Source of the DNA: Alphaproteobacteria bacterium
GTDB taxonomy: Bacteria; Pseudomonadota; Alphaproteobacteria; JAAXGF01
DNA length: 64,000 nt
Direction of reading: 5' to 3'
NCBI GenBank assembly: GCA_963555825.3
Contig: CAUVXB020000002.1
Span: forward strand, 576,001-640,000
This document shows positions 15,107 to 35,904 of the stretch, piece by piece. A program made the translations under genes and the position numbers. The notes beneath the pieces were generated by a model, which saw nothing but the letters and a program-made list of their open reading frames with translations, was not told the origin of the DNA and searched no databases. Position 1 is the stretch's first letter. Each line of letters begins with the position of its first letter.

Positions 15107-15477
15107 CTAAGTGACATACCCTTCGAGCTCAAGACGGATGAGACGATGTGCGGGAATGGCGGCTGTGGGTCTACCATCGAATTTCGTGAGGAATAGGCTG
15201 TTGTTGCGCAGTGGGGATGTGCGAGAACTCGCGGCGGCGAGTTATCCACATATCCAGTGCGGCGGCAGTGATTTTCCTGGAATCGCAGGTGGCTTGTGCG
15301 GTGAACGGCGGTTAGCCTGACGCCGACGGGGGTGTGGCTGTTTGGGTCAGTGGTCCGGCTTGCCGGGCTCACTCAAGTTTGAATTGCCGCCCCCGTCACC
15401 TGCATCATCCGACGGGTCGACCGGGATGGTGCCGATCGCTGGCGATCGTGGCTCTGCAGGTAGACGAGACCGAAGGA

Positions 15478-16852: not shown

Positions 16853-17215
16853 ACCGAAGGATGATCCGAGGGTCTTGTTTGCTGAAGGAGCGATCCATGC
16901 TGAACCCCCAAGCTTTGCAACTGCGTGTCGGTGTCGATGTCGGCTCGCAGTGCCACTCTGTTGCCGTCGGTCTCACGGACGGCAGTCTGCTCGAGGAATT
17001 CGAGATCCCGCATACGGCAGCGGGTTTCGAGTATTTCTTTGCCCGCATCGAGGGGCACGCCAAGCGCCATCCCTAACCCGCTTCCCTACCGCGACCCTTC
17101 GCCTTGCGGAATGAAATAGAGCGCGGGTCGCTGACCGCGCTGCGGGAGAAGTTGGTATCTGTGTCCTCGACTTGTGCTATATCAATCAGCCGAAATACGT
17201 TTTCCTGGAGCCCGT

Positions 17216-18610
17216 ATGCGCATCCCTGGAGCCGATAAGGCTATCGACAATCTCATTAAATGGTCCGCGAACGAGGAGTGGAACCCTTTTCGTGAGCAGG
17301 TATTCGCGGAGCATTTTGACATGATCTTCGACCGCTTCGACACCACCAAGGAGGAAATCGCCGACCTTCTAGGCGATTCATTTGGCATGGTGTTCGGGTG
17401 CGTCCTCGAGGACTTCTTTACCGCCAGATTTGGCGACAAGGGCGATAACATCATTGATGACTACCTGAAGCGACGGGGGTGGCGGGAGAAAATCTCGGCA
17501 AAACGTTACCTGGAGGCCATCAGGGACTCTGTTTTGTCGCTCTACGAGGTCGTTGACCTAGATCCGGGACACAGTATGACGGTCAGGGATTTGGTATTGG
17601 GGGGCGATACTATCACTGTAGAGGAAAAGCTTGGGTCGGAAACGGCCGCGCGGTGGGACCGGATTGCTGGACGGATCGTGACGGTCAACAAGAAGGTCTA
17701 TTTCACCGGCTCCTTGCTGCTGTTCCCGCACGAGGTGGCGGATGAGATTCTTTCCGGCATCGAGGAGATGGTCAAGAGTATCAAGAAGAAGCTCCAGAGG
17801 GAGGCCAAGAAGCAGGGAGAACCAGCGGATTTCAAGGACAGAGACCTGCGGGAGATGTTTCTTCACGCGAGCGCCCGCCTATTCACCCGGACTTGGCTGA
17901 TTGATGTTCTGGATCGAGCCTCAGAACCTTTACCCGAGATCCGCAATACCGATGGCGATGAGATCGTGTTCTCAGAAGCCCGGTTTCCAATCACCGGCGA
18001 ACTTGCCAGTGTCATCGTCGGCCTCGACGCAATCAACGAGTTCGAAAGGGACGACCCCGACGAATTGCAATGGACTTGGCATGGACATGGTTCACCATCC
18101 AAGAGGGTGTCGCGAGGAAAGGGCCACACCTTCAAGGCGGACGATGATGCCGGTCGAACCATACTGGGCAACATCGAGATCGGTGAGGACGCACTAGTCC
18201 TGAGCACGAATTCGAAGGAACGCGCCGATAAGGGCCGGGACCTATTGCTTTCTCGCCTTGATGGGTTGGTTGGCCAGCCTCTGACCTCACATCAGACCCC
18301 GGAGAAAATGCTTGATGAGCGATCCGGTTCCGCTCCTGTGCAGTCCGAACTGCCTCCCGAAGTGGCAGAGCAAGTCATCCATTCCTATTTGGAAACCCAT
18401 TATCGGCAGGCCCTCGATGACCCGCTGCCTTATCTCGACGGCAAAACACCTCGACAAGCCGCAAAGACCAAAAAGGGCAGAGCGCAAGTGATAAATTGGC
18501 TCAAGAAACTGGAAAACTCGGAAGCCAGGCGCGCTGCTAGTGAAGGGCAAGAGCCCTATAACTTCCAGTGGATGTGGCGGGAGATGAAGATCGACGATGC
18601 TCGTCGCTAA
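17216..18610 (+). CDS. Conserved hypothetical protein with C-terminal MbcA/ParS(DUF2384)-like motif
   Basis: Long intact ORF with RBS; C-terminal LDDPLPYLDGKTPRQA motif. Confidence 0.7.
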   Translation: MRIPGADKAIDNLIKWSANEEWNPFREQVFAEHFDMIFDRFDTTKEEIADLLGDSFGMVFGCVLEDFFTARFGDKGDNIIDDYLKRRGWREKISAKRYLEAIRDSVLSLYEVVDLDPGHSMTVRDLVLGGDTITVEEKLGSETAARWDRIAGRIVTVNKKVYFTGSLLLFPHEVADEILSGIEEMVKSIKKKLQREAKKQGEPADFKDRDLREMFLHASARLFTRTWLIDVLDRASEPLPEIRNTDGDEIVFSEARFPITGELASVIVGLDAINEFERDDPDELQWTWHGHGSPSKRVSRGKGHTFKADDDAGRTILGNIEIGEDALVLSTNSKERADKGRDLLLSRLDGLVGQPLTSHQTPEKMLDERSGSAPVQSELPPEVAEQVIHSYLETHYRQALDDPLPYLDGKTPRQAAKTKKGRAQVINWLKKLENSEARRAASEGQEPYNFQWMWREMKIDDARR

Positions 18611-18728
18611 GAAAGTAAAACCGTGATCGAAAGCAGAGCCCTAGCAGGAAATCCGGCATAGGCTTTGAATGTCTCTCGTTGGGGGATAAGCGGAAGTTCA
18701 AGGCACGGCCCCAAAGAGTCCGCTTATA

Positions 18729-18897
18729 ATGGGGTGGACGGCCCCACACGGCATCTAGGTGCCAGAAGTGGTAGCTGTTGACTGACCACTTACAAAGGAG
18801 CCGTCCTATGACCGAAGTTAGCACGATTGGGCTTGATCTTGCGAAGAACGTTTTCCAGGTTCACGGGGTCGATGTCTCAGGCGAGACCGTGATCCGC
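18729..18897 (+). pseudogene. IS110 (IS1111-group) left end and N-terminal transposase fragment next to REP-like hairpins
   Basis: MTEVSTIGLDLAKNVFQVHGVD from ATG 18808. Confidence 0.8.
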
Positions 18898-18945
18898 CCT
18901 AAAGAGTGTCTTAAGTCTCGGTCTGTAGCGCCAAGCGCGAGGCTG

Positions 18946-21900
18946 CTACATGCCCATGCTTCGTCCCCGGGATCTTTTGTGGGTCTGGCGTTCTTCTTCC
19001 TCGGCCGTTTCGCGCGTTTTGGAGTGGCGCTCAACATAGTCGTCGAATTCCTTTTGTGCCGCCTTGCGTTCTTCCCCCGTTGCGTTGTACGCGGCTGACT
19101 GGAGCCGGCTGAACTCGCGAGCGTCCCTTTGTGCGCGGCGCTGGCTTTCCTCGTGCGTCTCCTGCGGTGCGGATTGTTCGCTATGGCGCTCCCGTTCAGC
19201 GGCCTCCGATATCTGCCTGTCGTCCCTGGCCATCAGCCTGCCGATATCGGTGAGCGCCCAGCGCATGCGCTCCAGGCCGAGCGGGATGCCGTTGAGATGA
19301 CTGCCGTAGATAACATGGCCATCCATGATACGCCGGCCGGTCTCGGCCAGCCTGTCGATGTCCGTCCGCCACCTGTCATAGCCGGTGAGACCGGTAACCG
19401 GTCTGTTTAAATCGATCGCGACGGTTTCCAGCACCTCGCTACGATATTCCAGCCGGTCCTTGACCGCAGCGAGATAATCCTCGATTTCACGCCGGGTTTT
19501 GGTCCCTTTGTCGAGTTGGGCGAGCACGTTCCCGAGCGACCGGCGTGGGCGGTCTTCAAGGGCCGGGTTTTTGGCCAACGCTTCCATGCGGGCTCGGAGC
19601 TGTTTGTAGCCTTTCACATATATGGCATGAACACCGGCCCGTTCCGCGGCCGCGAGGTGACGGCTCCAGTCATGTCTCAATACCGAATAGGTATCCCAGG
19701 CGATCTGCTCTTCCGTGTGTGTGGACGGTTCCTTCACGGACGGGGCTGGCGCCACGGGTGAAGGTTGTACATCCGGATCTCGTTCGGTTGGCATGGCAAC
19801 CGTTTCAATCGGTGGAGGGGCATGTGCTGGGTTACGCGGCCTGTCACCGTCAGGCCCTGCAGGCTGGATGCGCCCGTCCGGCACGGTGACTGCCGGTTCA
19901 ACGGCTCCGACGCCAAGCGGCAGCACTCCCTGGCGCCTCTTGGGCTCGATCCCCTGTTGTTCGGCCTCCCGCTTGATCCGATGCACGTAGCGCATCGTGG
20001 ACGCCCGCCGGTGGCGTCGCGCCCGTGTATGGAGATCCTCGAAAGCATCGAGGTCCTTGCGCCCGATGCCGCCGCGCTGGGCCAACAGGGAGGCGAAGTC
20101 GCCGGGCCGGGCGCGGAAGATCTCGGCCTGTTTCAGCAGCACGGCGTGCCGGGTGAGGGTTTCCTGGAAAGCCCCGCTGAGCGCGACGGAGTCGCCCTCG
20201 GCGCGAGTCCGTTCGCGGAGATCGTCGTACGCCGCCAGAACTTGCCCGCGGCCGTCTACGAACGAAGCCACCGCCTGGGCATGACGCCAGCCGAAGGCGG
20301 TGCGCCGGATATCCCGTGCGATGCGAGCCAGCGCGTTGTCGTTCGCCGCCGGACGGGCTTCCAGCGGTTCTCCCCGGGTTTCTCGGATTGACCGGGAATT
20401 GTCCTCCCGGACATTCTCCCGCCGGTCTTCCCATTTGCCCTCGGCCATGTAGTCGAGCGCGGCCTCCTTCGGTTGCGACCGCGACCAGCGTTCAGCCAGA
20501 TACGCCCGGATCTCGGTGTCCGTTACCGCCACTTCCCGGTCGTTGTCCGCTCGCCTGTCGGCGATATCGAGAGCGAGCGGGGCGCGATTGACATAGATGT
20601 CGAGCCCCTCGCGATGGCGTGTCGCGGCGGGATAGATCGTCTCACGCGCGGGCCTTGCATCGGCCAGCAGGAACGTGCGGTCCACGGTCAACCCCTGGGC
20701 CGAGGTGATGGTGAGCGCATAGCCGTGATCGAGGCGGATATTGCTGTACCAGTCGCGGATCTCGTCGTGATGGAACGAGACGGACCGCCCATCCTCGGTA
20801 CGCGCCGATATCAGGACACTCGGCTCCGTACCGGCCTCACCCCTCTCAACCTTGAAGTCGTCCACCGTGACCACGGTGCCGTTGAACAGCTGCTTCTCCC
20901 AGTGGGTGGCGCCGATACGCAGCCTGTCGCCGCGCGCGATCTCGAGCGGCGAAGCCGTCCGTTCGTCTTCCATCCCCCGGCTTACGATCACCGTCACCCG
21001 ATCCGTATCGAGCCGTTCCCCATCCGGCAGGGCGGCGAACCGGCGTTCCCGCATCAGATGCGAAAGAGCCCGCACCTCGGCCCGTGTGCGCGCCAGCACC
21101 ACGCTGGACTTGTCGGGGTTCGCCCGCTGGTAGCGATCCCAGTCATCAACCAAGCCGGTCAACGTCTTTTCTTCATCATATCCGATATGGAACCGGCCTC
21201 TTGCGTGATGAGCCGCGATGGCCGATACCGCATCGCCATCGCGCAAGGCCTCCGACGCGGCAACCTGCCACGGCGTGAACTGGGGCTTCTCAGCCATGGC
21301 CTCGTAGTCGCCAAGAATTTTGGCGCGTTCTTGCTCTCCCATCAATTCCGCGCGGAACCGCGCTGCCTCCGGCGTCTCGCCATGGACATGAACCAGGATA
21401 TCCTCCGGGTCCGCTTTCTGGCGCCGTATGCGGTCCACCCGCACGCTGCCAACGGCGTCGCGGATCAACCTCAACCCCGGTCCCGCTTCCACCGGTTGTT
21501 GCTGCTGTGTGTCGCCCGCGAAGACGATCTTCGCTCCATGGCGTTCGGAGAGTTGGAGAATGTGATGCGCCTGGCGGGTCGACAGCATCCCCGCTTCGTC
21601 GACGATAATGGTGGTATCCTTGTTAATCTCGATCCCACCCCGAGCGGCAAGGCGCAGCAGCTTGTCGACACAGAACGGCCGCGCATCGACATCGTTGCCA
21701 AGCGCCACGGCCGTGCGCCAGGCCACGGCCGTGGCGATAATGCTCTGCCCGTGTTCGCGATAGAGATCGGCAATGGGCCTGAGCGTCGTGGTTTTGCCCG
21801 AGCCTGCCGCTCCTTCGATGATGGCGACCCGGCCCTCGGATGAGGTGACCGAGCGGATCGCCGCGATCTGTTCCTCGCTCAGCGGATAACCCGCCTTCAG

Positions 21901-23213
21901 CAACCCCGCCACCTTTGCCCCGATGGCCTGGGCGGACAAGGAATGGCCCGTATCGGCGGCCATGCCTTCCGCCATATCCCTGACTTCCTGCTCCATCCGC
22001 AGGTTGTGACGGGTCGAATACAGCCTCGTGTGCGCCATATCGGCCCGACCCTCGGCCGAACGCGGCGGGCGGGTCAGGCGCACCACCTCGGGGCTTAGAA
22101 GCACGCGTTCGATACTTGTCGCCACCGCGTCCCGGTTCAACAAGCCGGCGGTGGCGTTGCCCACCCGCTCGACGATATCCGGCAGGCGGAATACCGCTTC
22201 CTCGCGTGTAAGACGGTACGGCAGGTCTTCCAGGACTTCTGTCAGCGCCCGGATCTGCTCTTGGGTAATCTCTTCCGACTTGCCCAATAGCGAGGCAATT
22301 AGTGCCTCGCGTTCGACATATCCCTCCGCCTCGCCGCGCCAGCGCTGATGCCGGATCTCCGGATCGTTGTCCGGCGACTTGCCAGCCCGTGTGATCTTGT
22401 TCGCTGCTGCTGCACGCGGTGCGTTGCCCTCGACCGTAAAGCCCATCTCCCGGGCCGCTTCGATAATCGCCGCCCGGCGCTTCGACCAGTGTCCGATCAG
22501 GTGCTCGGGCATGCCTGTGATACGCGTGAACTCTCCATCCTTGCCGTACTGTTCCATGCGGATGCCGAGACGATCTTGCAGGCTCCAGGCGAGTGTATTG
22601 CGGTAAACCGCCCCCGCCGCCTTCATCCAGGTGTAGACCGGGTGCTGATGCAGCGCCCGGTACTTGCCGTCCCGGTGTGTCCGGGCGGCATTGAAGATCA
22701 CGCAGTGGGTATGCAGCTGGGGGTCGTTATCCCGGCTGGTGCCGTGCTGGAACATCGCTGCCGCGATATCGGCCGGCAGCACCTCGATATCGCCGTCCCG
22801 GTTACGGATACGGGTGTAGGCGCAATGGCGCAGCACCGTCTCTTCCAGCGCTACGCGAGCCGCATCGTTATGCGCGTCTCGATCTTTGAACGTAGCTCGG
22901 GATCGGCGATGGCCCACAAGGCCGAGACGCTCTTGTCGGCGCTGAAGGTCAGGTCGAGACCGGCCGAACGGCGCTCGCTGCCGGCATTCCGCGTTAGCTT
23001 GCCTCCGCCGTTCGGGGCGAAGCCGTGATACAGCCGGTGGAAGTCGCTGCTGTCGACCTTGCCGCCGTCGACAAGACCGAACAGGCCGTTGGGGTTGAAC
23101 CACACTCCGTCCGGCTCTTCTCCCGCCGTGTAATACTCGTTGGGATGGCGGAAGGAGCGCTGGCTCTCCAGGTAGTACGCGGCAGACGCCGCCTGGGCGA
23201 GTGTCGCTACCAC
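18946..23213 (-). pseudogene. traA: MOB-F (TrwC/TraA-like) relaxase-helicase copy 1, 1-bp frameshift near 22877
   Basis: YY...YY N-terminus, DLTFSADKSVS, HGTSRDNDPQLHTH, GAAGSGKTT, VDEAGM; GAGACGCGCAT versus GAGCGGGCGCAT in copy 2. Confidence 0.9.
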
Positions 23214-23399
23214 GATGAGCTCCGCAAGGCAGGGGGAATGACCGCGGCGACGGAGCCAAGCGCCGCCTTCCGGCCCGGGGCCGGGACGGCGTCCATGACT
23301 ACTGGAGCGGAAATCCTCATAAGCGTCCGATCGTTACCCGGGTTTCCCAAGCAAATCGTCCCTCGTTGACCGATACTCGGCCACAGTCTCCCTGGGACA

Positions 23400-23430
23400 G
23401 CGCACTTCAGTGCAGAGGTGTGAGAAGTAA
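23400..23430 (+). other. oriT: Predicted MOB-F oriT/nic copy 1 (nick at about 23421/23422)
   Basis: Hairpin GCAC-TTCA-GTGC then AGAGGTGT^GAG; resembles R388 GCACC-GAAA-GGTGC and F-type GGTGT^GG. Confidence 0.65.
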
Positions 23431-23800
23431 CAAACGCCATTTCTCTCTCGTTCGCGACCGAGCATACGCATATCGTTCAAGGTTGCAAGGGATTTTTTGA
23501 CACGCCGCAGGGACGGCGCGCAGGTTTGGCAAACGCTGGATTTTCACGCTGTTGCATTCGGGGGAGGTTAGGCAAGCGCACGGACCATCATGGCTGGTGT
23601 TTCGGATTGCCAAGGTTCTCATTCCTCAGAACGGTGACCGGATAGCCGGCGAATGCATCTGGGCCTGATTACGAATCCTAATCGAGGGCGACGACAACGC
23701 TTCCCAGACCCTGGCGGCGGCGAGGCAAACCTCGAGGCGGTGGATGTGGCGCCGACGGTCGGCCGAATGTGTGACCGATAATGGCGGAGGGAGACGGAAT

Positions 23801-24103
23801 ATGACTGCGAAACGCTTCAACAAAGCGGATATCGACTTCGATGCCATAGATGGTGAATTGGCGAAACTTGTGCCGCCTAAGCTGAGCCTGACGGATGTGC
23901 TGGACCGTTTACGGAAGCGGCTGGTTGAGCAACAGTCCAAGGGGGTTACGGTGGCTCAGATGCATGAAGTGTTGAAATCGGGCGGCATCGATATCACGGA
24001 GCGCAGTCTGCGGACGTTTCTGACCAAGGGCGTATTGCCGGGAAGGAAGGTTGCCGAGGCCGCCAGGGCCATGGTGTCGGAAGAAGGCAAAGAGCCGTTC
24101 TGA
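23801..24103 (+). CDS. Small relaxosome-accessory (MobC-like) protein, divergent from the relaxase
   Basis: 100 aa, RBS GGAGG/GGAG, sits across oriT, paralogue at 28515-28816. Confidence 0.65.
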   Translation: MTAKRFNKADIDFDAIDGELAKLVPPKLSLTDVLDRLRKRLVEQQSKGVTVAQMHEVLKSGGIDITERSLRTFLTKGVLPGRKVAEAARAMVSEEGKEPF

Positions 24104-24572
24104 GCCGAATGACGGCGCATATGGGTTCGTCGTGGCGGTTTTCGGGATGCGAATAATGAAGTTGCAATGGGGGATGGCCGGGCCCCAGCGTGGCGCTTCA
24201 GCGCCCGCATACGGCGATGGCGCGAAGTGGCCGAGCCGATAGGCGGCGATGCATCATTCGAAGAACGAGGAGCCGACAGCGAGCGTAAGCTCGCACAATT
24301 GGCGGTGGCGCGAAGCGCCCCGCCATGGGCCGTGACTTTATGCACACGGCATAAAAAAGGGGCCGACCTCCGCTGTGTGATGGCGGGGGCCGACCCTGAA
24401 GGGTGTCGCTACGCGGCGGCGAGAATAATGCCGAGTAGTTGCTAATGCCGAGTGACGTGCGGGGAACGGCTTGTCCGCGCCGATTTCCCACCGATTCGCT
24501 CGGCATTAATTCTGGTAGTCAGTTTTCCGGCAAAGTCGTCCTCCCTTTCGATCAGATGGAGGACGACAACAA

Positions 24573-26144
24573 ATGTCTTCGACACCCAACCGCCGGCCCC
24601 TGCTGGGGACCACAGCACTGGCCGGCTTCGACGCAAGCATTTTCGCGTTCATTGACGATCTTCGTCGTCGCGGCGAGATTGCTGAAGGTCAGTTCCCCAA
24701 GTACCGGTATGCCGCCCGTCACTTCCTGATCTGGCTTGAGCTCACCGGTATCGCGCTCAAAACAGTCGACGCCACAGTCATCGACCGCTTTCTGCGGCAC
24801 GATTGCCGTTGTGCCGCATCGTCCGCACCTGTCCGGCCTCGCCGCTGGCGCAAGGGCCGCACGTCGCCCAAACTCATGACGTTCATCCGCTTCCTTGAGC
24901 GGACGGGGCGGATCGAGACGCCGGGTGAGCTGGACGACAATTTCCAGTTGCTGGACGCGTTCCTCGCGGGCTTGCGCCGCGGTAGATATGCGACCGCAAC
25001 CATCAAACTGTACCGTTACGGCTGCGCCGGTCTCATTGTCTGGCTCCACCTCTCACGGATCCGCCTGCGCGATCTGACACCGGATATTTATGCACGCTTC
25101 CGGAACAGGCAGTTCGTCTGCTCAATCCCCGGGATGTTCTGCGGCCACGAAACGCAGTCACCCGGAACCGCTTACCGAACCGAAGTCCGCGGCTTCCTGA
25201 AGCATCTCGTCGCAATCGGGCGGATTGAACCCCTGGAGCCGTTCCCGGGCGAGAAGGCGCCGTCCGCTCGCCTTGAGAGGTACGCCGTGTGGCTTGAACG
25301 CCATCGCGGCATCTGCCCGGGGACTATACGCCAGCATGTCCGTTTGATCGCAGAGATGCTGCCTCACCTTGGAGATGATCCCGGGGGTTATGGCGCGGCA
25401 CTGATCCGGCGAGTGCTGTTCGAGCATATGGAGCCCTGGTCGCGAAGCTACGCCCAGAGGCTGACAACCGTGATGCGCATGTACCTTCGGTTCCTGGTAT
25501 CGGAAGGCAGCATCGCGGCAGCGCTGGTCGGGGCCGTGCCGACGGTGCCTCAGTGGCGGTTGTCAACCTTGCCACGGTACATCCCGGCCGACGATGTCGC
25601 GCGCACCATCGCCTCCTGCGGTGATGACCCTATGGGCGTACGCGACCGGGCGATCCTGCTGCTTCTGGCACGACTTGCACTGCGGGCAGGGGACATCGTT
25701 GCCCTGCGCCTCGGCGATATCGACTGGGACAGGGCCGAGATCCGTGTCTCGGGAAAGTCACGACGGCAGACGGCTCTGCCGCTGCCCCAGGATGCCGGCG
25801 ACGCGCTCCATGCCTATATCGCGACGGTGCGGCCAAGGGTGGATGAGGAGAAGGTGTTCCTCTGCGTCAACGCACCCTGTCGACCGTTCACCGACTCAAG
25901 CACCGTCAGTGCTGTGGCGGAACGCGCACTCGACCGCGTCGGGGTCAAGACCTTCGCCGGTCGCGGTGCGCATGCGTTCCGCCACTCCCAGGCGACAGCG
26001 TTGCTCAGGTCGGGAGCAACGCTCGATGTCATCCAATCGCTGCTCCGGCACGCCTCCCCCGACACCACCATGATCTACGCCAAGACCGATGCGGTCATGT
26101 TGCAGGAGATCGCCCAGCCCTGGATCGGAGGGATCGAGGCATGA
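24573..26144 (+). CDS. ritA: Tyrosine recombinase RitA
   Basis: RDRAILLLLARLALR, HAFRH, LRH...Y catalytic set. Confidence 0.92.
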   Translation: MSSTPNRRPLLGTTALAGFDASIFAFIDDLRRRGEIAEGQFPKYRYAARHFLIWLELTGIALKTVDATVIDRFLRHDCRCAASSAPVRPRRWRKGRTSPKLMTFIRFLERTGRIETPGELDDNFQLLDAFLAGLRRGRYATATIKLYRYGCAGLIVWLHLSRIRLRDLTPDIYARFRNRQFVCSIPGMFCGHETQSPGTAYRTEVRGFLKHLVAIGRIEPLEPFPGEKAPSARLERYAVWLERHRGICPGTIRQHVRLIAEMLPHLGDDPGGYGAALIRRVLFEHMEPWSRSYAQRLTTVMRMYLRFLVSEGSIAAALVGAVPTVPQWRLSTLPRYIPADDVARTIASCGDDPMGVRDRAILLLLARLALRAGDIVALRLGDIDWDRAEIRVSGKSRRQTALPLPQDAGDALHAYIATVRPRVDEEKVFLCVNAPCRPFTDSSTVSAVAERALDRVGVKTFAGRGAHAFRHSQATALLRSGATLDVIQSLLRHASPDTTMIYAKTDAVMLQEIAQPWIGGIEA

Positions 26145-27079
26145 CGGAGAAAGCCACCATCACAGAGCATATCGAGCGCTTTGTCGCGATGAAGCAAAGG
26201 GTCGGTTACCGGTTCACGCGGAGCGGGACGACACTGCGGAGCTTTGCGCGGTTCGCCGAGGGCCGTGACGAAACATTCATCCGTTACGAGACAGCCCTCG
26301 AATGGGCATCGGCATCGGCGGCGGCGTCACGAAACGAGCGAGTGAGCAAGCTGCGAGCGGTCCATGCCATGGCCTGCTGGCTGCATGCCGAGGACCCACG
26401 TCACGAGGTGCCGCCCCGTGATGCTCTAGGTCATCTGTCCAAAAGGAGACCGCAGCCGTACCTGGTATCGGTCCCGGACATCCAGAAACTGCTGACAGCG
26501 GCACTGTCCATGCGGCCCGTCGGCACCATCGCCCCGCTGACCTGGCACCACCTGTTCGGTCTCATCGCCGCAACCGGCCTGCGCATCGGCGAAGCCCTCG
26601 CATTGACGCTGGACGACATCACGCCTGACGGCCTCGTCATCCGAGACACGAAGTTCGGCAAGACGAGGATGGTCGCGCTGCACCCGACCACCTGGGATGC
26701 GCTGAACCGCTATCTGGATGCACGACTCAAGGAGAAAACTCCAGACCGGCATCTGTTCGTGATCGCCACCGGCCGGTGCCCACATAGACAGTATGCGGAT
26801 CACGTCTTCCGCAAAATCGCGGAGCAAGCGGGAATCCGGGAACCCGACGCGGCACGAGGACCGACCCCGCACTCGCTACGGCATTCTTTCGCCGTCCGGT
26901 CACTTGAGAACCTGGCTCCCGGCGTCAACCCGGACCGTCACATATTGGCCCTCGCCACCTACCTCGGCCATGTCGGGGTCTCGAGCACCTATTGGTATCT
27001 GGAATCGACCCCGGTCCTGCTGCGCGGCATCGCCGAGGCCGCGCAGCAGGCTCACGCGAATGGAGGGTCCGATGACTGA
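26141..27079 (+). CDS. ritB: Tyrosine recombinase RitB
   Basis: TGLRIGE, TKFGK, HSLRH, YLGH....TYWY. Confidence 0.92.
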   Translation: MTEKATITEHIERFVAMKQRVGYRFTRSGTTLRSFARFAEGRDETFIRYETALEWASASAAASRNERVSKLRAVHAMACWLHAEDPRHEVPPRDALGHLSKRRPQPYLVSVPDIQKLLTAALSMRPVGTIAPLTWHHLFGLIAATGLRIGEALALTLDDITPDGLVIRDTKFGKTRMVALHPTTWDALNRYLDARLKEKTPDRHLFVIATGRCPHRQYADHVFRKIAEQAGIREPDAARGPTPHSLRHSFAVRSLENLAPGVNPDRHILALATYLGHVGVSSTYWYLESTPVLLRGIAEAAQQAHANGGSDD

Positions 27080-28064
27080 TCTTGCCCCCCATCTCACCGC
27101 CTTCCTGCAGGAGCACCTGCCCAACGAGCGGCGCTTCAGCCGACACACCGTGCAGAGCTATACCGAGTGCTTCCGGCTGCTCGTCCTCTACGCGGCGGAG
27201 CAAATCAAAGTCCGCCCCTGTGCTTTGAAAATCGAGCACTTCACGGTGGCGCTCCTGCTGGCCTTCCTCGAATCCCTGGAGAAGGTTCGCAACAACAGCA
27301 TCGGCACGCGCAATATCCGCCTCGCCGCCATCAAGTCCTTCTTCCGGTACGTGGAATACCGTGTCCCGAGCTGCCTCGACCACGCATTGCAGGTGCGCGC
27401 CATCCCGCAGAAGCGCGCCGACAAGCCCCTGATCGACTGGCTCGACCGGACCGAGATGCAGGCGATCCTGGATGCTCCGGATACCGCAACGGTGGCAGGC
27501 TTGCGCGACCGCGCGATGCTGCACCTGTGCTACGCCGCCGGGCTGCGGGTGTCGGAACTGACCGGACTCACCCTCGACAGCCTGTCGGGTTCCCAGCTTG
27601 AGACTATCCGCGTCCTGGGCAAGGGGCGGCGCGAGCGCGAACTGCCGCTGTGGAGGGAAACGAAAACCGTCCTCAATGAGTGGCTCGACGTCCGGCCGGC
27701 CGTCAACAACCGCTACCTGTTCCTCAACGCACGGGGGCGGGCAATGAGCACGGACGGCTTCGCATACATCCTCAAGCAGCATGTCGCCACGGCGGCCCAG
27801 AAGGTCCCGTCGATCGACACCAAGCGGGTGACCCCGCATGTGCTCCGTCACTCGACGGCAATGACGATCCTGCATGCCACCGACGATATACGGAAGGTCT
27901 CGTTGTGGCTCGGGCATGCGGACATCAAGATCACCGAAACGTATGTCCGCGCGAGCCCGGCCGAGAAACTGGCAATCCTTGAGATCAACACACCGCCTTC
28001 CATCCGGTCGGGGAACTTCCCGGGTCTGAAGGACAGCCTGATGAGGGTTCTCGGCGGGAACTGA
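27072..28064 (+). CDS. ritC: Tyrosine recombinase RitC
   Basis: MTDLAPHLTAF, GLRVSE, GKGRRER, HVLRH, WLGH.....ETY. Confidence 0.92.
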   Translation: MTDLAPHLTAFLQEHLPNERRFSRHTVQSYTECFRLLVLYAAEQIKVRPCALKIEHFTVALLLAFLESLEKVRNNSIGTRNIRLAAIKSFFRYVEYRVPSCLDHALQVRAIPQKRADKPLIDWLDRTEMQAILDAPDTATVAGLRDRAMLHLCYAAGLRVSELTGLTLDSLSGSQLETIRVLGKGRRERELPLWRETKTVLNEWLDVRPAVNNRYLFLNARGRAMSTDGFAYILKQHVATAAQKVPSIDTKRVTPHVLRHSTAMTILHATDDIRKVSLWLGHADIKITETYVRASPAEKLAILEINTPPSIRSGNFPGLKDSLMRVLGGN

Positions 28065-28514
28065 CTGCCAGAATTAATGCCGAGCGAATCGGCGGGAAAT
28101 CGGCGCGGACAAGCCGTTCCCCGCACGTCACTCGGCATTAGCAACTACTCGGCATTATGCTCGCCGCCGCGTAGCGACACCATTCAGGGTCGGCCCCCGC
28201 CATCACACGGCGGAGGTCGGCCCCCTTTTTATGCCGGGTGCATAAAGTCACGGCCCAAGGCGGGGCGCTTCGCGCCGCCGCCAACTGTGCGAGCTTACGC
28301 TCGCTGGCGGCTCGCCGTTCTTCGAACGATGCATCGCCGCCTCACGGCACGGCGCTTCGCGCCATTGCCGTACGCGGGCGCTGACGCGCCACGCCATATC
28401 CGAAAACCTCCCCCCGCAGATTCGGTGTTCATACCCCGAGAACCGCCACGACGGACCGCCGTTCATTGAACGCCGCTTCCTTGCTTTACGAACCCGCATG
28501 CGCCGTCGTTCGGC

Positions 28515-28816
28515 TCAGAACGGATCGCTGCCTTCTTCGGACACCATGGCCCTGGCAACCTCGGCAACCTTCCTTCCCGGCAATACGCCCTTGTCCAGAA
28601 ACGTCCGCAGACTGCGCTCCGTGATATCGATGCTTCCAGCGTTCAACACCTCTTGCATCTGAGCCACCGTCACTCCCTTGGCCTGTTGTTCGACCAATCG
28701 CTTCCGCAAACGGTCCAGCACATCCGTCAGGCTCAGCTTAGGCGGCACAAGTTTGCCAACACCCCGTCTATGGCACCGAAGTCGATATCCGCTTCGTTGA
28801 AGCGTTTCGCAGACAT
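28515..28816 (-). pseudogene. MobC-like accessory gene copy 2 with 1-bp deletion near 28755
   Basis: TTG GC- AAA CTT versus TTG GCG AAA CTT in copy 1. Confidence 0.7.
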
Positions 28817-29087
28817 ATTCCGTCTCTCTCGCCATTTCAGGATTCGTAATCAGGCCCAGATGCATTCGTCGGCTATCCGATCACCGTTCTGAGGAATAAG
28901 AGCCTTGGCAATCCGAAACACCGGCCATGATGGTCCGTGCGCTTGCCTAACCTCCCCCGAATGCAACAGCGCGAAAATCCTGTGTTTGCCAAACCTGCGC
29001 GCCGTCCCTGCGGCGTGTCAAAAAATCCCTTGCAACGTCGAACGATATGCGTATGCTCGGTCGCGAACGAGAGCGAAATGGCGTTTG

Positions 29088-29118
29088 TTACTTCTCACAC
29101 CTCTGCACCCTTAGGTGC
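29088..29118 (-). other. oriT: Predicted MOB-F oriT/nic copy 2 (nick at about 29097/29096)
   Basis: Minus strand GCACC-TAAG-GGTGC-AGAGGTGT^GAG; homology between the two arms breaks at this hairpin. Confidence 0.65.
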
Positions 29119-29303
29119 TTTGATCTCGATAAATGTAATGAACTTTGCCCTGATTTGTAAAGATCGCACGGCCATTTCGTTAAACCTCTGTAAAATACAG
29201 GAATTCCCAAGGCTGGAATCATGAGAGCTACGACAGTCATATTCCGGCTGTACTCCGGCCAGGTTGTATCCCTATCCGGCAACGTCGTTACCGGGCTGGC
29301 GTC

Positions 29304-32300
29304 ATGGTAGCCACTCTGGCCCAGGCCGCATCGGCTGCGTATTACCTGGAGAGCCAGCGCTCCTTTCGTCATCCCAATGAGTACTACACAGCGGGTGAAG
29401 AACCGGATGGCGTCTGGTTCAATCCGAAGGGCCTGTTCGGTCTTGCCGACGACGGCAAGGTCGACAGCAGCGACTTCCACCGGCTGTATAACGGCTTCGC
29501 ACCGAACACCGGAGGCAAGCTCACACAAAACGCGGGCAGCGAGCGGCGCTCGGCGGGTCTCGACATGACCTTCAGCGCGGACAAGAGCGTCTCGGCTTTA
29601 TGGGCGGTCGCCGATCCGGAACTGCGTTCGGAGATCGAGCGGGCGCATAACGATGCGGCTCGGGTAGCGCTGGAGGAGACGGTGCTACGTCATTGCGGGT
29701 ATACCCGCGTCCGTAACCGGGACGGCGGGATCGAGGTGCTTCCCGCCGATATATCCGCCGCGATGTTCCAACATGGAACCAGCCGGGACAACGACCCGCA
29801 ACTGCATACCCACTGCGTGATCTTTAATGCCGCCCGGACCCACCGGGACGGCAAGTACCGGGCGCTGCATCAACACCCGGTCTATACCTGGATGAAGGCG
29901 GCGGGAGCGGTCTACCGCAATGCGTTAGCCTGGAGCCTGCGAGACCGTCTCGGCGTCCGCATGGAACAGTATGGCAGGGATGGAGAGTTCACGCGTATCG
30001 CAGGCATGCCCGAGGACCTGATCGGTCACTGGTCGAAGCGCCGGGCGGCGATTATCGAAGCGGCCCGGGAGATGGGCTTTACGGTCGAGGGCAACGCGCC
30101 GCGGGCAGCGGCGGCGAACAAGATCACACGCGCAGGAAAATCGCCCGACAATGACCCGGAGATCCGGCACGGGCGCTGGCGCGGCGAAGCGGAAGGGTAT
30201 GTCGAACGCGAGGCACTGATCGCCTCGCTTCTTGGGAAGGCGGAAGAGATTACCCAAGAGCATATCCGGGCTCTAACAGAGGTGCTGGAAGACCTGCCGT
30301 ACCGTCTTACCCGCGAGGAAGCGGTATTCCGCCTGCCGGATATCGTGGAGCGCGTGGGCAATGCTACCGCAGGGCTGTTGAACCATGAGGCGGTCGCGAC
30401 AAGCATAGAGCGTGTTCTTCTGAGCCCTGAGGTCGTGCGCCTGACCCGCGCGCCACGGTCGGCCGAGGGCCGGGCCGACATGGCGCACACCAGGCTCTAT
30501 TCAACCCGTCACAACCTCCAAATGGAGCTTGAAGTCCGTGACATGGCGGCCGGAATGGCCGCAGATACGGGACATTCCTTGTCCGCCCAGGCAATCGAGA
30601 ACAAGGTGACGGGGCTTCTGGCGGCGGGTTATCCGTTGAGCGAAGAACAGATCCAGGCGATTCGGGCCGTCACGTCTTCGAGCGGGCGTGTAGCCATCAT
30701 CGAGGGAGCGGCGGGTTCGGGAAAGACCACAACGCTGCGGCCCATCGCCGATCTATACCGCGAACACGGACAGAGCATCATCGCCACGGCCGTGGCTTGG
30801 CGCACCGCCGTGGCGCTGGGTAACGATGTCGATGCGCGGCCGTTCTGCGTCGACAAGCTGCTGCGCCTTGCCGCGCGGGGCGGTATCGAGATCGATGGAG
30901 ACACCACCATCATCGTCGACGAGGCGGGGATGCTGTCGACCCGTCAGGCGCATCATATTCTCCAACTCTCAGAACGCCATGGGGCGAAGATCGTCTTCGC
31001 AGGCGACACGCAGCAGCAGCAACCGGTGGAAGCGGGACCGGGGTTGAGGTTGGTGCGCGACGCTGTGGGCAGCGTTAGGGTTGACAGAATCCGCCGCCAG
31101 AAGGCCGACCTGGAAGATATTCTGGTCCATGTCCATGGGGAGAATCCGGAGGCTGCGCGGCTCCGTACGGGGATGATGGGGGAGCAGGAACGCACCCGCA
31201 TTGTTGCTGAATACGAGGCGATGGAGGATAAGCCTGCATTCACACCGTGGCAGGTGGCGGCATCGGAAGCGCTGCGCGATGGCGACGCGGCATCGGCCAT
31301 AGCGGCTCACCACGCAAGGGGCCGGTTTCATATCGGGTACGACGAAGAAAAGACGCTGACCGGTCTGGTCGATGACTGGGACCGCTACCAGCGGGAACAT
31401 CCCGACAAATCCAGCGTGGTGCTGGCGCGCACACGAGCCGAAGTGCGGGCGCTGTCGTACCTGATGCGGGAGCGTCGTTTCGCCGCCCTGCCGGATGGGG
31501 AACGGCCCGATACGGACCGGGTGACGGTGATCGTAAGCCGGGGGACGGAAGACGAGCGAACAACCTCTCCACTGGAGATCGCGCGCGGCGACCGGTTGCG
31601 CATCGGCGCCACCCACTGGGAGAAGCAACTGTTCAACGGCACCGTGGTCACGGTTGACGACTTCAAGGTTGAGAGGGGCGAGGCCGGTACGGAGCCAAGT
31701 GTCCTGATATCGGCGCGCACCGAGGACGGACGAGAGGTCATTTTCCGTCACGATGAGATCCGCGACTGGTTCGGCAATATCCGCCTCGATCACGGCTATG
31801 CCCTCACTATTACCTCCGCCCAGGGGTTGACCGTGGACAGGACGTTCCTGCTGGCCGATGCACGGCCGGCACGTGAGACGATCTATCCCGCCGCGACACG
31901 CCATCGCGAGGGGCTCGACATCTACGTCAACCGGGCGCCGCTCGTTCTCGATATCGCCGACAGGCGAGCGGACAACGACCGGGAAATTGCGGTGACGGAC
32001 ACCGAGATCAGGGCGTATCTGGCCGAACGCTGGTCGCGCTCGCAGCCGAAGGAGGCGGCGCTCGACTACATGGCCAATGGTATATGGGAGGACCGCCGTG
32101 AGAATGTCCGGGAGGACAGAAGCCGATCCTCCGGCGAAACCCAGGGCGGGGCCGGTGATATCCGTGCCGCAGCCAACGACAACGCGCTGGCCCGCATCGC
32201 GCGGGATATCCGGCGTACCGCCTTCGGCTGGCGCCATGCCCAGGCGGTCTCCACCTTCGCCGCTGGCCGCGCGGAAATTCTGGCGGCATACGACGATCTG

Positions 32301-33725
32301 CGCGAGCGCACCCGCACGCAAGGCGATACCGTGGCGCTTGGGCCTGCTTACCAGGAGACGCTAACCCGTCACTCGGCACTGCTTAAACAGGCCGCGGCCT
32401 TCCGCGCCCGGCCGGCCGACTTCGCCTCCCTGCTGGCAGAACGCGGCGGTATCGGGCGCAGGGATCTCGACGCCTTCGAGGATCTCCATACACGGGCGCG
32501 ACGCCACCGGCGCGCGGCCACGATGCGCTACGTGCATCGGATCAAACGGGAGGCTGAACAAGGGCCGGAACAGCAACCTGGGCCGGAGTTGCGGCAAGGC
32601 GAGCTGCCTCTGGAGGACGATCATGCCGCGCTGGACGGGCGTGCCGAAGCGGTGGAGCGGACCGCGACGACAGCGCCATCCCGCAGTCCTGCCGCGACGA
32701 CAGCCGATGCGGGGGCGCCCGCAACAGACGCGGAAACCGCAAAGCCGGACTGGGTGGAGCCTTACGAAGCCTTGCGGCGGGATTGGAACAGCCTGATCGA
32801 AAGGGTTCAACAAACCGGGGAACCCATATTCTACGCTAAGGGGTATGCGGACATGATGCCGCGCATGCAGGCGCTCGAGGATAACCGGGATATCCCGGCC
32901 GAGACACGGGCACCGATGATCCGGGCGCTCGAAAATCACCAACGGGATCTCTCGGCGCGGAAATACGTCGCGGACTATCTTGACGCGGCCGAACGGCACA
33001 TGGGCAATTTCGCCGGCCTTCAAAGCGCGGCGGAGAGCCCCGATATTCCGATCGCCAAGGTACCGGATCATCCGGATTGGAGGCAGGAAGCGGAGCGCCT
33101 GGCGGCGGCGGGTGAGGCCATTCTCTCGGACAAGGAGGCCTACGGTGTGCATCTCGATCACATCCTGATCGGCGATACACGCATCAAATGGGTGCTCTCG
33201 GACCTTCGCGAGGCGATCCGGCGGGACAGCGCCGCCATCCGCGAGAACGCCGTAACAGAAACCCGGGAGCGCCCTTCCCCGGTGCCAACGCCCGAAGAGA
33301 GCGCCCGCGAAGCTCAAAGCAAGGTCCACGAGTTCCGCCGGCTTCAGTCGGCCGCCTACCATGCATCGGGGGACGAGCGCAAAGCGGCGCAGAAGGCGTT
33401 CGACGAATATCGAGCGCGCGAGTCCAAACACTACACCACGTCCGGGGAAGACCGCCGCCACGCCCGCGACATACATGAAGAGACCCGACAACAGCCCTCC
33501 TCGCCGCAAACGGACGAGGAGCGCAGGCGCGAAGCCCAAAGCAAGGCCCACGAGTTCCGCCGGCTTCAATCGGCCGCGTACAACGCAACGGGGGACGAGC
33601 GCATAGCGGCACAGAAGGCGTTCGACGACTATCGCGAGCGCGAGTTCAAAAAGAACGAGAAGCACGAGGAGAAGAAGCGCCAGACCCGCAAGAAGTCCAA
33701 GGGCCTGAGAATGCGCCTGCAGTAA
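29304..33725 (+). CDS. traA: MOB-F relaxase-helicase copy 2 (intact)
   Basis: YY/YY tyrosines, DPQLHTH HUH motif, RecD-like helicase motifs, HGYALTITSAQG. Confidence 0.95.
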   Translation: MVATLAQAASAAYYLESQRSFRHPNEYYTAGEEPDGVWFNPKGLFGLADDGKVDSSDFHRLYNGFAPNTGGKLTQNAGSERRSAGLDMTFSADKSVSALWAVADPELRSEIERAHNDAARVALEETVLRHCGYTRVRNRDGGIEVLPADISAAMFQHGTSRDNDPQLHTHCVIFNAARTHRDGKYRALHQHPVYTWMKAAGAVYRNALAWSLRDRLGVRMEQYGRDGEFTRIAGMPEDLIGHWSKRRAAIIEAAREMGFTVEGNAPRAAAANKITRAGKSPDNDPEIRHGRWRGEAEGYVEREALIASLLGKAEEITQEHIRALTEVLEDLPYRLTREEAVFRLPDIVERVGNATAGLLNHEAVATSIERVLLSPEVVRLTRAPRSAEGRADMAHTRLYSTRHNLQMELEVRDMAAGMAADTGHSLSAQAIENKVTGLLAAGYPLSEEQIQAIRAVTSSSGRVAIIEGAAGSGKTTTLRPIADLYREHGQSIIATAVAWRTAVALGNDVDARPFCVDKLLRLAARGGIEIDGDTTIIVDEAGMLSTRQAHHILQLSERHGAKIVFAGDTQQQQPVEAGPGLRLVRDAVGSVRVDRIRRQKADLEDILVHVHGENPEAARLRTGMMGEQERTRIVAEYEAMEDKPAFTPWQVAASEALRDGDAASAIAAHHARGRFHIGYDEEKTLTGLVDDWDRYQREHPDKSSVVLARTRAEVRALSYLMRERRFAALPDGERPDTDRVTVIVSRGTEDERTTSPLEIARGDRLRIGATHWEKQLFNGTVVTVDDFKVERGEAGTEPSVLISARTEDGREVIFRHDEIRDWFGNIRLDHGYALTITSAQGLTVDRTFLLADARPARETIYPAATRHREGLDIYVNRAPLVLDIADRRADNDREIAVTDTEIRAYLAERWSRSQPKEAALDYMANGIWEDRRENVREDRSRSSGETQGGAGDIRAAANDNALARIARDIRRTAFGWRHAQAVSTFAAGRAEILAAYDDLRERTRTQGDTVALGPAYQETLTRHSALLKQAAAFRARPADFASLLAERGGIGRRDLDAFEDLHTRARRHRRAATMRYVHRIKREAEQGPEQQPGPELRQGELPLEDDHAALDGRAEAVERTATTAPSRSPAATTADAGAPATDAETAKPDWVEPYEALRRDWNSLIERVQQTGEPIFYAKGYADMMPRMQALEDNRDIPAETRAPMIRALENHQRDLSARKYVADYLDAAERHMGNFAGLQSAAESPDIPIAKVPDHPDWRQEAERLAAAGEAILSDKEAYGVHLDHILIGDTRIKWVLSDLREAIRRDSAAIRENAVTETRERPSPVPTPEESAREAQSKVHEFRRLQSAAYHASGDERKAAQKAFDEYRARESKHYTTSGEDRRHARDIHEETRQQPSSPQTDEERRREAQSKAHEFRRLQSAAYNATGDERIAAQKAFDDYREREFKKNEKHEEKKRQTRKKSKGLRMRLQ

Positions 33726-33957
33726 GCCGCGCGGTTGGCTGGACCGGCGCCCTCTCTCCTCGACCTCATGGGCAATGGCGCGTCCTCACGGCATCGAACG
33801 CGGTGAGAGGTGCCATTTTGAGTGCCGGGTTCTAATCTGGAGGCACTCAACCGAACCGCAAACGGGCCGATGCGGTCCCTGGCGGAAGGAACGTTCGGAT
33901 CGGGACAGCCCTCAACACGCCGCACAATCTTGACAACCAGTGTTGTTTGTTTATGTT

Positions 33958-34407
33958 ATGTCCGTGTCAACACCGAGGGCCGCCTCCTTGCAGCGTTTCA
34001 CCGATCAGCCCTCCGACCTCGCCCTGCCGCTCTACGGCTCCAGGGTACCCGCCGGATTTCCAAGCCCCGCCGACGACCATATCGAGGGCAAGCTTGATCT
34101 CAATCTGCATCTGATCCGCCGCCCGGCGGCGACCTTTTTCATCCGCGCGCAGGGCGAATCCATGCGCGATGCCGGAATATTCGACGGCGACCTTCTCGTT
34201 GTCGACCGCGCCATCGCGCCCCAGGCCGGCGATATCGTCATCGCCGTCCTGCATGGCGATCTGACGGTCAAACGCCTGAGAAAGAGCAATGGCGCCCTGA
34301 TCCTCTACGCCGAGAATCCGGATTTTCCCGATATCGCCCTCGACGATGCCGGTTGCGAGGCCTGGGGCGTCGTTACCCACAGCATCCGCCGGCACTGCGC
34401 GCGTTAG
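33958..34407 (+). CDS. umuD: DNA polymerase V autoproteolytic subunit
   Basis: [18 protein letters not shown]. Confidence 0.93.
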
Positions 34408-34411
34408 GTCC

Positions 34412-35731
34412 ATGGCCACGATCGGCCTGGTCGATTGCAACAACTTCTATGCCTCGTGCGAGCGGGTGTTCCAACCTTCGCTCGCCGGCCGCCCCATCGT
34501 CGTGCTGTCCAACAACGATGGCTGCATCGTCGCCCGCTCCCAGGAGGCCAAGGCGCTCGGCATCGCCATGGGCGTCCCGCTGTTCCAGGCGAAGCGCCTC
34601 GTCGAACGCCACGATGTCACGGTGCTGTCCTCGAACTACGCGCTCTATGGCGACCTGTCGGAACGGGTGATGAGCATTCTGGCCGCCGAGGCGCCGCGCA
34701 TCGAGGTCTACAGTATCGACGAGAGTTTCCTCGATCTCGACCGCCTTGCGGTTCCCGACCCGGCCCGGTGGTGCCACGATCTTCGCACCCGGATCCGCCG
34801 CTGGACCGGCATCCCGGTATCGATAGGGATCGGTCCGACCAAGACCCTGGCCAAGATCGCCAACAGGATCGCGAAAAGCGCGCCACGGACGGGAGGGGTT
34901 CTTGACCTGTCGGGCAACCCCGCCTGGATCGGCCCGGCACTCGCCAGAACCGCCGCGGGCGATGTCTGGGGCATAGGCAGCCGCTGGTCGAGGATGCTGG
35001 CCGGGCGCGGGATCGGGACCGCGCTGGACCTGCGCGATGCGCCCGATGGCTGGGTGCGCCAGCGCATGGGCGTGACCGGGCTCAGAACGGTGCACGAGCT
35101 GCGCGGCATCGCCTGTCATGAACTGGAGACACAGCCCGCCGCGAAACAGACCACCTGCTGTTCGCGAAGCTTCAGCCGGGCCATTAGCGATAGGGAGCAG
35201 GTTCGCGATGCCATCGTATCCTTCGCGGAAAGGACGGCGGAGAAAATCCGCCGGGCCGATCAGGTCTGCGGCAATCTTCAGGTATCCATCGCGACCGACA
35301 GTTTCGATACCGCCGCCCCGCAATATACGACCGCCGCATCGGCAGCGTTCCCGGCGCCAACCGCCGACAGCCGCGTTATCGTCGCGGCGGCGTTGCGAAT
35401 ATTCGAGCACCTCTGGCGCGAGGGCTTTGCCTACCGCAAGGCCGGCGTGATGCTCCTTGACCTGTCGCCGGCCGGCGATGCGGTTGGATCGCTGTTTGAG
35501 GACGGGCCGTCGGAGAACGGCCGCTTGATGCAGGCGGTGGATCGGATCAACGGGCGGTTCGGGCGGGGCTCGATCGGCCTCGGTCTCGCGGCCAGAACTG
35601 CGGAGTGGCGGATGCGCCAGGAACGCCTTTCCCCGCGCTACACCACCCGATGGCGGGAGCTGGCGGCGGCGAACACTGGACCGGTCACGCCGCACGCCGA
35701 AGCCGTTAAATCCGGCATTCCGCCACTATGA
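34412..35731 (+). CDS. umuC: Y-family DNA polymerase V catalytic subunit
   Basis: [35 protein letters not shown]. Confidence 0.95.
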
Positions 35732-35771
35732 GGAAAACCGTTCCAGGATTGAAACTGCGGCGGGAAGAAGT

Positions 35772-35904
35772 TCATCGTTGCGCTGCATCTATCCGCCGCG
35801 CGAACGCGCTGCCGCCGCCCATGGTGACACGCAGCCCGTCATGATTCTTCAGGTAGCGCGCCAAGGGCTCGCGGATATCCCGGTGATCATCGGCCACGGG
35901 AACG
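35772..35904 (-). pseudogene. Degenerate response-regulator receiver remnant hit by IS256
   Basis: VADDHRDIREPLARYLKNHDGLRVT; divergent from the EF-hand gene. Confidence 0.5.

Follow-up and report, generated by a model that had tools for sequence, protein, structure and literature searches.

A stretch of 64,000 nucleotides (hereafter the window) from an alphaproteobacterial genome contains a unit of about 15 kb with mirror symmetry. The window corresponds to positions 576001-640000 of contig C2 in the source genome G000, which totals 6.04 Mb in two contigs (C1 and C2) with 65% G+C. At the centre of the unit lies a recombinase-in-trio (RIT) element, and on either side of it stands an arm carrying a MobF-type relaxase gene that reads outward from the element (Table 1). 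RIT elements have been catalogued since 2009, and their kind is still poorly understood. A sequence-only reading of the window had recognised the symmetry and offered a pair of explanations for it: a RIT-linked fusion of two related modules at the same site, or a composite RIT-MobF element.

Table 1. Features of the mirror-symmetric unit and its surroundings (window coordinates unless a contig is named).
Feature	Position	Strand	Remarks
ritA	24573-26144	+	tyrosine recombinase, 523 aa; PF00589 3.4e-27
ritB	26141-27079	+	tyrosine recombinase, 312 aa; PF00589 1.3e-19
ritC	27072-28064	+	tyrosine recombinase; PF00589 4.9e-31
Left terminal inverted repeat	24420-24524	+	opens with the 6-bp core CGAGAA (24420-24425)
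Right terminal inverted repeat	28059-28163	-	reading inward, its outer 6 bp (28158-28163) give the core variant CGAGCA
RIT copy 2	C2:3599864-3603397		outside the window
RIT copy 3	C2:2330984-2325992		outside the window
Left arm	18930-24419	-	relaxase module reading outward from the RIT
Right arm	28164-33739	+	second, different member of the same module family, mirror orientation
Inverted match into the RIT ends	24188-24524 and 28394-28059		93.5%
Inverted match	23780-24130 and 28836-28488		89.7%
Inverted match	23410-23679 and 29108-28839		95.9%
Inverted match, relaxase genes	19957-23212 and 32561-29305		86.3% over 3262 nt
Inverted match	18930-19117 and 33739-33551		78.0%
Left relaxase-helicase gene	18946-23213	-	MobF/TrwC type; frameshifted in the assembly near 22876-22877
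Right relaxase-helicase gene	29304-33725	+	MobF type; 1473 aa, one open frame
Small open reading frame, left	23801-24103	+	100 aa; labelled 'mobC' by the sequence-only reading
Small open reading frame, right	28518-28816	-	frameshifted in the assembly; tblastn aa 1-23 and aa 20-100 in different frames
Best-conserved non-coding stretch of the arm	23410-23679		95.9% to 29108-28839; candidate oriT/promoter region
Segment of ~195 nt preceding the relaxase start	23213-23409 (left), 29109-29304 (right)		mutually dissimilar
Dispersed short repeat, MITE-like	23683-23785		left arm only
Transposase- or IS-bearing stretches	273-16821, 36004-37287, 47126-52486, 61038-61973

The RIT element occupies positions 24420-28163, at the centre of the unit as had been proposed, and consists of ritA, ritB and ritC between 105-bp terminal inverted repeats. 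Adjacent genes overlap, ritA and ritB by 4 bp and ritB and ritC by 8 bp if ritC begins at the ATG at 27072, the likely start, which is preceded by GGAGG. The ritC frame remains open for 279 nt upstream of this codon, back to 26793 and overlapping ritB (26793-27079), and this extension aligns in close relatives by tblastn at lower identity (52.7% versus 74% in locus L007). The left and right repeats differ at three of their 105 nt (24424, 24490 and 24516), and the left repeat holds two direct copies of TAATGCCGAG.

RIT elements were first described in Cupriavidus metallidurans CH34, and their gene trios show characteristic short overlaps of 4-8 bp (PMC3414803). Also given as a hallmark are a RitA protein with two core-binding domains and a RitC protein with an extra C-terminal helix (PMC8138268); the RitA protein of the window yields one weak SAM-like match, at 234-312. 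Printed repeat lengths are '28-9 bp' (PMC3414803) and '34 bp' (PMC10214605), target specificity is given as 'not tested' (PMC10214605), and palindromic ends of 47-51 bp have been taken as a hint of hairpin intermediates (PMC5737581). The premise of the sequence-only reading that RIT repeats are short fails for the clade studied here, in which they measure about 90-105 bp.

The core of the element (24525-28058) occurs in three copies on contig C2 at 100% identity, with the left repeat included in all three. In copy 3, a 1.45-kb insertion interrupts the element at RIT positions 27496-27505, with 10 nt present on both of its sides. Because copies 2 and 3 lie within one segmental duplication of at least 10 kb (right flank shared, 99.95% identical), they reflect one insertion followed by duplication, and the three copies thus mark two independent sites. 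The central RIT is probably ordinary and intact. As a comparison set, we used 29 loci with RitA relatives from other genomes. RitA is 33-94% identical to the first gene of the trios at these loci, and by tblastn the complete trios keep the order ritA-ritB-ritC.

Repeat search and blastn within the window reveal inverted homology between 18930-24524 and 33739-28059, at 78-96% identity. As had been noted from the sequence, this homology starts inside the RIT ends, is interrupted (at 23213-23409 and 29109-29304) and resumes in the relaxase genes. A second break falls in the relaxase's C-terminal part (19118-19956). Beyond the relaxase stop codons the homology of the unit ceases, within unrelated single-copy DNA.

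The relaxase module belongs to a family with six copies on contig C2, two of them frameshifted. The right arm is 95.9% identical to C2:71828-75294, which lies 530 kb away, and 89.8% identical to C2:888596-892996, whereas the left arm matches its best paralogues elsewhere at 88.3-88.4%; the two arms match each other at 86.3%. The claim that the arms are too diverged for a simple assembly fold-back holds, as they differ by 4-22% and by a 100-nt insertion. Each arm is nearer to paralogues elsewhere than to its partner, which argues against a fold-back and against duplication in situ alike. Judged by these identities, the arms are two different family members brought together. The left arm alone carries a repeat resembling a miniature inverted-repeat transposable element (MITE), a kind of about 103-115 nt with 13 other copies at roughly 89% identity (nine on C2 and four on C1). 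The segment of about 195 nt that precedes the relaxase start comes in three variants or more across the six modules, although the block adjoining it is the best conserved of the arm (95.9%).

RIT junctions were aligned with three RIT-free arm ends to define the normal state of the insertion. A normal copy (copies 2 and 3) is a 3764-bp insertion, with one CGAGAA core counted, and has CGAGAA at both junctions. An empty paralogous site at C2:~3257644 agrees with copy 2 on both flanks, with 99.7% identity across 358 nt to the right and 92.5% across 710 nt to the left. A normal copy reads in the order module, core, left repeat, ritABC, right repeat, CGAGCA, palindrome, CGAGAA and end of a SLOG gene, wherein the palindrome is perfect and 20 bp long (TTATGCAGAGCTCTGCATAA). 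The target is the 3′ end of this convergent (opposite-strand) SLOG/DUF2493 gene, and the core lies one or two codons after a conserved GIPV near that end. Empty SLOG genes end with GIPVLLAAA or similar, followed by the stop codon. The filled gene of copy 2 instead ends with GIPVLLVMQSSA before its stop, where the new tail and the stop codon are both read from the palindrome. The corresponding filled tails are GIPVMHVMPSSA in the genome of L004 (G032) and GIPVQRIIPSSG at L001 and L003, in a third genome.

Other genomes place the element family at the same kind of site. In L001, L004 and L006, PF10686 (YAcAr/SLOG, formerly DUF2493) is found on the same side as the palindrome, and the palindromes of L004, L006 and L015 invariably stand on the side of the SLOG gene. 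Seven of ten SLOG loci fetched from G032 are empty and three are filled, with a 5-6-bp core common to them. At least 26 places in that genome match the 600-nt end of the SLOG gene at 76-92% identity, making it a highly multi-copy target. A genome of the same class but of another family (G018) contains four complete arms, all of them RIT-free and 84-94% identical to the window arms at the DNA level, and the site there corresponds to the last codons of a PF10686 gene. These arms are as near to the window arms as the window arms are to each other, which suggests recent horizontal exchange of the module.

Related elements enter other genes. A RIT with 75% RitA identity is present in four copies in another genome, three of which (L007-L009) lie in TrwC-type relaxase genes at Walker-A codons; six bases are repeated at both junctions of L009, and the fourth copy (L010) adjoins DUF7146-Toprim. 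Other RIT lineages are located in hipA or in genes of insertion sequences (ISs). RIT copies also occur in pairs. At L001 (3259-13582), two 100% identical RITs converge on a 2758-nt segment with a SLOG gene, with both palindromes facing inward, and the flanks of this pair recur at L003. On the Sphingobium plasmid p3 (L067, NZ_CP046256.1), a RIT trio with 38% RitA identity has a gene annotated 'strawberry notch C-terminal domain' on one side and one annotated 'methylase' on the other, and adjoins a second trio on the other strand, a further instance of RITs nested among conjugative plasmid genes.

The left junction of the window copy is that of copy 2, and its right junction is the mirror image of the left. 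The two arms join the RIT repeats at one and the same nucleotide of the 6-bp core, and the last 18 nt or so are common to both arms. The right repeat runs straight into the right arm, with no 20-bp palindrome, no outer core and no SLOG half of the target, and no palindrome was found within 330 nt of this repeat. At all three diagnostic positions, the fifth core base included, the right repeat keeps its own base, so any crossover would have to lie within or outside the first four core bases. A crossover at the core does not fit homologous exchange inside the 105-bp repeats.

Palindromes and flanks were then counted in 20 RIT copies, namely 18 of the 29 loci and two copies from the source genome. 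Excluded were L002 (the same place as L001), L013, L014, L021 and L029 (short contigs), L018, L023, L024 and L026 (interrupted or partial trios), L027 and L028 (33% identity) and copy 3 of the source genome (a duplicate of copy 2). One perfect palindrome stands beside one repeat in 15 of the 20 copies (after ritC in ten, before ritA in five), two palindromes are present in L017 and no perfect palindrome is found in four copies (L016, the window copy, L022 and L025), of which L022 and L025 carry imperfect ones. All perfect palindromes are centred on GAGCTC. Their placement varies for the same RIT within one genome, as in L004 versus L006 and L015, or in L007, L009 and L010 versus L008.

Mirrored flanks are found in three of the 20 copies. 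They are the window copy, with 2638 nt aligned within 3 kb, L016, with 592 nt, and L017, with 115 nt. The other 17 have none. The three mirrored copies are precisely the two that lack any palindrome (window, L016) and the one that has two (L017). Furthermore, L016 and L017 are 100% identical RITs that lie inverted and about 690 kb apart on one chromosome (genome G031); L016 has two target-left halves and no palindrome, and L017 has two target-right halves and two palindromes. By their sequences, L016 and L017 look like the reciprocal products expected of recombination between two inverted RIT copies in homologous targets. The window copy shares the anatomy of L016.

On this basis, the unit in the window is probably a rearrangement scar, in which two target-bearing relaxase modules were fused through the RIT. 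The part of the sequence-only reading that proposed a RIT-linked fusion at the same site is supported: both arms are joined at the same core nucleotide, the right repeat has its own diagnostic bases and the arms are different family members. The part that proposed a composite RIT-MobF element is not supported.

In the model that we favour, the RIT would insert by tyrosine-recombinase site-specific recombination at the 6-bp core in the end of the SLOG/DUF2493 gene, which in this element family lies convergent to the MobF relaxase module, and the palindrome furnishes the SLOG gene with a short new end and its stop codon. In all ten lineages, palindrome half-sites lie within 0-2 mismatches of the repeat motif TAATGCCGAG. 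Since the repeats are nearly identical, each next to a 6-bp spacer, and the half-sites are repeat-like, we infer from the sequences that there are two equivalent core sites around the palindrome, each composed of a repeat tip, a 6-bp spacer and a palindrome half, which could be used in either orientation. Fusion might then arise by two routes. Two RITs oppositely oriented in two modules could recombine with each other, or the free second core of one RIT could recombine with the empty site of a second module. Both homologous RIT-by-RIT exchange and site-specific exchange between a free core and an empty site would yield the observed product, with module A on the left repeat and module B on the right. 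The palindrome and both SLOG halves would have been deleted, or carried off on a reciprocal product that was later lost; as an alternative to a lost partner, a deletion may have occurred between directly repeated RITs or cores. As the two remaining cores are mutually inverted, the trapped RIT could at most flip and would not be excised precisely.

Several observations weigh against this account. The source genome holds no reciprocal product, as there are five occurrences of the SLOG-side 17-mer but the palindrome is confined to copies 2 and 3, and deletion or later loss must therefore be assumed. No read or contig covers the 3.7-kb RIT plus both arms among four public runs from four studies, whose contigs are short and whose longest listed piece on this stretch is 1027 nt. 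The argument from a reciprocal pair rests on one other genome (G031), in which no uninterrupted paralogue of the L016/L017 target was found and DNA matches end before the junction. Covariation by lineage between half-sites and repeats was not seen, as half-sites average 1.5 mismatches to the repeats of their own lineage and 1.63 to repeats from the others. The sequences show how the unit is built, where its junctions lie, what the target is and how the copies compare; recombinase activity, a circular form, the positions of strand exchange, the order of events and the choice between deletion and inversion are all things that we infer. Finally, some of these features may already be on record: no 6-bp core, SLOG gene-end target, rebuilding of a stop codon or palindrome on either side is stated in the excerpts of the RIT literature that were searched, a search that did not extend to the main RIT survey (Ricker et al. 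2013), which may describe some of them, or to supplementary tables of RIT papers, which may list insertion sites, and a full-text search found no paper linking RITs to DUF2493/SLOG genes.

A first alternative is that the mirror predates the RIT, which would have inserted into an older head-to-head junction of two relaxase modules. The arms do end at the same nucleotide and share their last ~18 nt, and the genome is heavily rearranged and rich in ISs. However, this explanation requires a prior fusion of the modules exactly at the RIT core, for which there is no known cause, and an empty head-to-head junction is found neither in the source genome nor in G018. In addition, all 17 non-mirrored copies bring a palindrome (15 perfect, two imperfect), whereas the window copy has none. 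We consider an older junction very improbable.

A functional composite, in which the RIT would serve as an integration or inversion module between two oriT-relaxase ends (oriT, origin of transfer) and the centre would invert as a switch, appears very improbable. RITs of this clade do lie in or beside conjugation genes in several genomes (the SLOG genes, the relaxase Walker-A codons of L007-L009 and the DUF7146-Toprim neighbour of L010), and the inverted cores would make flipping mechanically possible. However, the small open reading frame (ORF) of the arms occurs at none of the 29 RIT loci elsewhere, and a TrwC domain is present at only three of them, all in one genome, where it is interrupted by the RIT. 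All four G018 arms are RIT-free with empty sites, one gene in each window arm is frameshifted in the assembly, and the partner that is conserved across genomes is the SLOG gene end rather than the relaxase. The flipped junction was not seen in contigs of the four runs, which is weak evidence. Moreover, unrelated single-copy DNA borders the unit at both of its outer ends, with no repeats around them, its outer flanks have nothing in common with G018 or with the rest of the source genome except IS copies, and the unit itself was not found elsewhere (29 loci, G018). Thus, neither the defined outer ends nor the recurrence as a unit that would mark an integrative mobilizable element or a composite transposon were found.

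An assembly artefact, in which the three identical RIT copies of 3.5 kb would have been wrongly joined or collapsed, is likewise very improbable. Three such copies at 100% identity do reside on one contig, and nothing examined spans the RIT. Against this, the difference of 4-22% between the arms and the 100-nt insertion speak against a fold-back, the junction of the right repeat with an arm is unique, and all three left junctions are of the arm type. Because an unusual right junction exists and all left junctions are of the arm type, any pairing of left and right would still give one arm-RIT-arm mirror. The closure of the genome into two contigs despite hundreds of identical IS copies would also imply reads longer than 3.7 kb. 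Least probable of all is that one arm was duplicated in situ in inverted orientation, as might happen while the DNA replicates or the RIT inserts, and diverged later: the nucleotide-exact symmetry of the junctions would suit it, but the right arm is far closer to a copy 530 kb away (95.9%) than to the left arm (86.3%), the arms differ by up to 22% although the RIT between them has 100% identical copies elsewhere, and the ~195-nt segments before the relaxase starts are unrelated.

The rearrangement through the RIT that we prefer can be set beside known systems. The window element resembles known RITs in its three adjacent tyrosine recombinase genes (a long RitA, then RitB and RitC, with 4- and 8-bp overlaps), in its size of about 3.5-3.8 kb, in its identical multiple copies per genome, in its terminal inverted repeats, to which copies 2 and 3 add a palindrome at one end, and in its setting, as RITs often lie within conjugative elements and genomic islands. 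The window copy differs in lacking a palindrome, in having a target half on both sides and in its repeats of 105 bp. Phages and integrative and conjugative elements (ICEs) that target tRNA genes insert into the 3′ end of the gene and rebuild it. The RIT family of the window similarly hits the last codons of its target and supplies a replacement end with a stop; unlike those integrators, it targets a protein gene of another mobile element and has two equivalent ends rather than an asymmetric attP with arm sites. Inversions or deletions mediated by ISs or prophages between repeated elements swap the flanks of those elements. L016 and L017 show the flank swap expected between two inverted copies, and the window copy is built like L016; since the RIT is target-specific, the flanks that change places are homologues, and mirrors result. 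Tn554, the strand-biased circularizing elements (SE) and GInts, which are likewise transposon-like, share with the window RIT several tyrosine recombinases, site-specific insertion and a 6-bp sequence common to the junctions, but those elements have a non-recombinase helper (TnpC, Srap/Tfp or GinD) and cargo (PMC10214605). As described there, they are set apart in that long terminal inverted repeats plus a palindrome are not reported for them (PMC10214605).

A more general proposal, which we offer tentatively and rate a little short of an even chance, is that RITs use two equivalent core sites around a GAGCTC palindrome, integrate either way into the ends of SLOG/DUF2493 (or other conjugative-element) genes while rebuilding the stop codon, ride conjugative elements and fuse, invert or delete DNA between target copies. 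The last of these abilities would follow if both RIT ends stay recombination-competent. If the proposal is true, mirror units such as that in the window and the L016/L017 pair are footprints of RIT rearrangement. The mirror unit is probably a dead end for the RIT itself, but it shows that a target-specific element in multi-copy conjugative modules can reshape a chromosome. The source genome and its relatives also make RIT insertion open to experiment, as they supply exact ends, a 6-bp core, a conserved target gene, the site in both filled and empty form from two genomes, a predicted circular-form junction and natural rearrangement products.

The assignment of two MobF-type relaxase genes to the arms is upheld by TrwC and AAA_30 domains in both long ORFs, of which the right one lies above the MobF cut-off. 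The right relaxase scores 231.1 bits with PF08751 TrwC (cut-off 25), 142 bits with AAA_30 and 213.6 bits with the NCBIfam MobF model NF041492 (cut-off 100). For the left relaxase, tblastn places aa 1-112 at 23213-22878 and aa 114-1375 in another frame at 22875-19018, and the Pfam TrwC match of the long frame covers profile positions 102-284 only. One extra base behind 22877 is present in contigs of all four public runs, with depth shares of 608/1208, 464/981, 32/32 and 34/56, for which paralogues, strain variation or consensus error may be the cause. The module is like MobF systems of the type of TrwC of R388 or TraI of F in its N-terminal TrwC relaxase domain and SF1 helicase P-loop domain. 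It differs in that the arm has no close plasmid relative, as a PLSDB DNA search with the right arm matched three of 72,556 records, each over 1-2% of the arm, and in that its accessory ORF falls outside any known family.

Two labels given to that accessory region found no support. The small ORF called 'mobC' (23801-24103) has no Pfam or NCBIfam family at E <= 0.01, and neither do the longer ORFs 23744-24103 and 28515-28865, whether MobC or other, so that the name is a positional guess. A protein atlas placed the small ORF in unnamed clusters only, with an additional weak StbA-like lead at 0.88, and the ORF is present in the four G018 arms at 86-93% identity. As for the 'oriT hairpin', the sole local hairpin-like feature of the conserved block is a 16-nt near-palindrome (23447-23462 and 29056-29071). 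The term oriT is a positional guess as well, suggested by the position, the 95.9% conservation of the 270-nt block and this near-palindrome. A search of 17000-36000 against Rfam matched no family and gave one sub-threshold chance match (E = 0.8).

ISs are extremely abundant in the wider setting. Individual types have dozens of copies, 100% identical and spread over the two contigs, near-identical IS copies number in the hundreds across the genome and at least ten transposase genes lie in the window (rve, IS1595, IS110, IS21, IS4/5-like and Mutator-type). Immediately outside the right arm are umuD/umuC-like genes (33940-35731). Further on, 39511-45078 carries a type IV coupling protein gene (TraG/VirD4 type), a DotA/TraY-family gene and a weak TraW-like gene, which look like remnants of a type IVB conjugative element.

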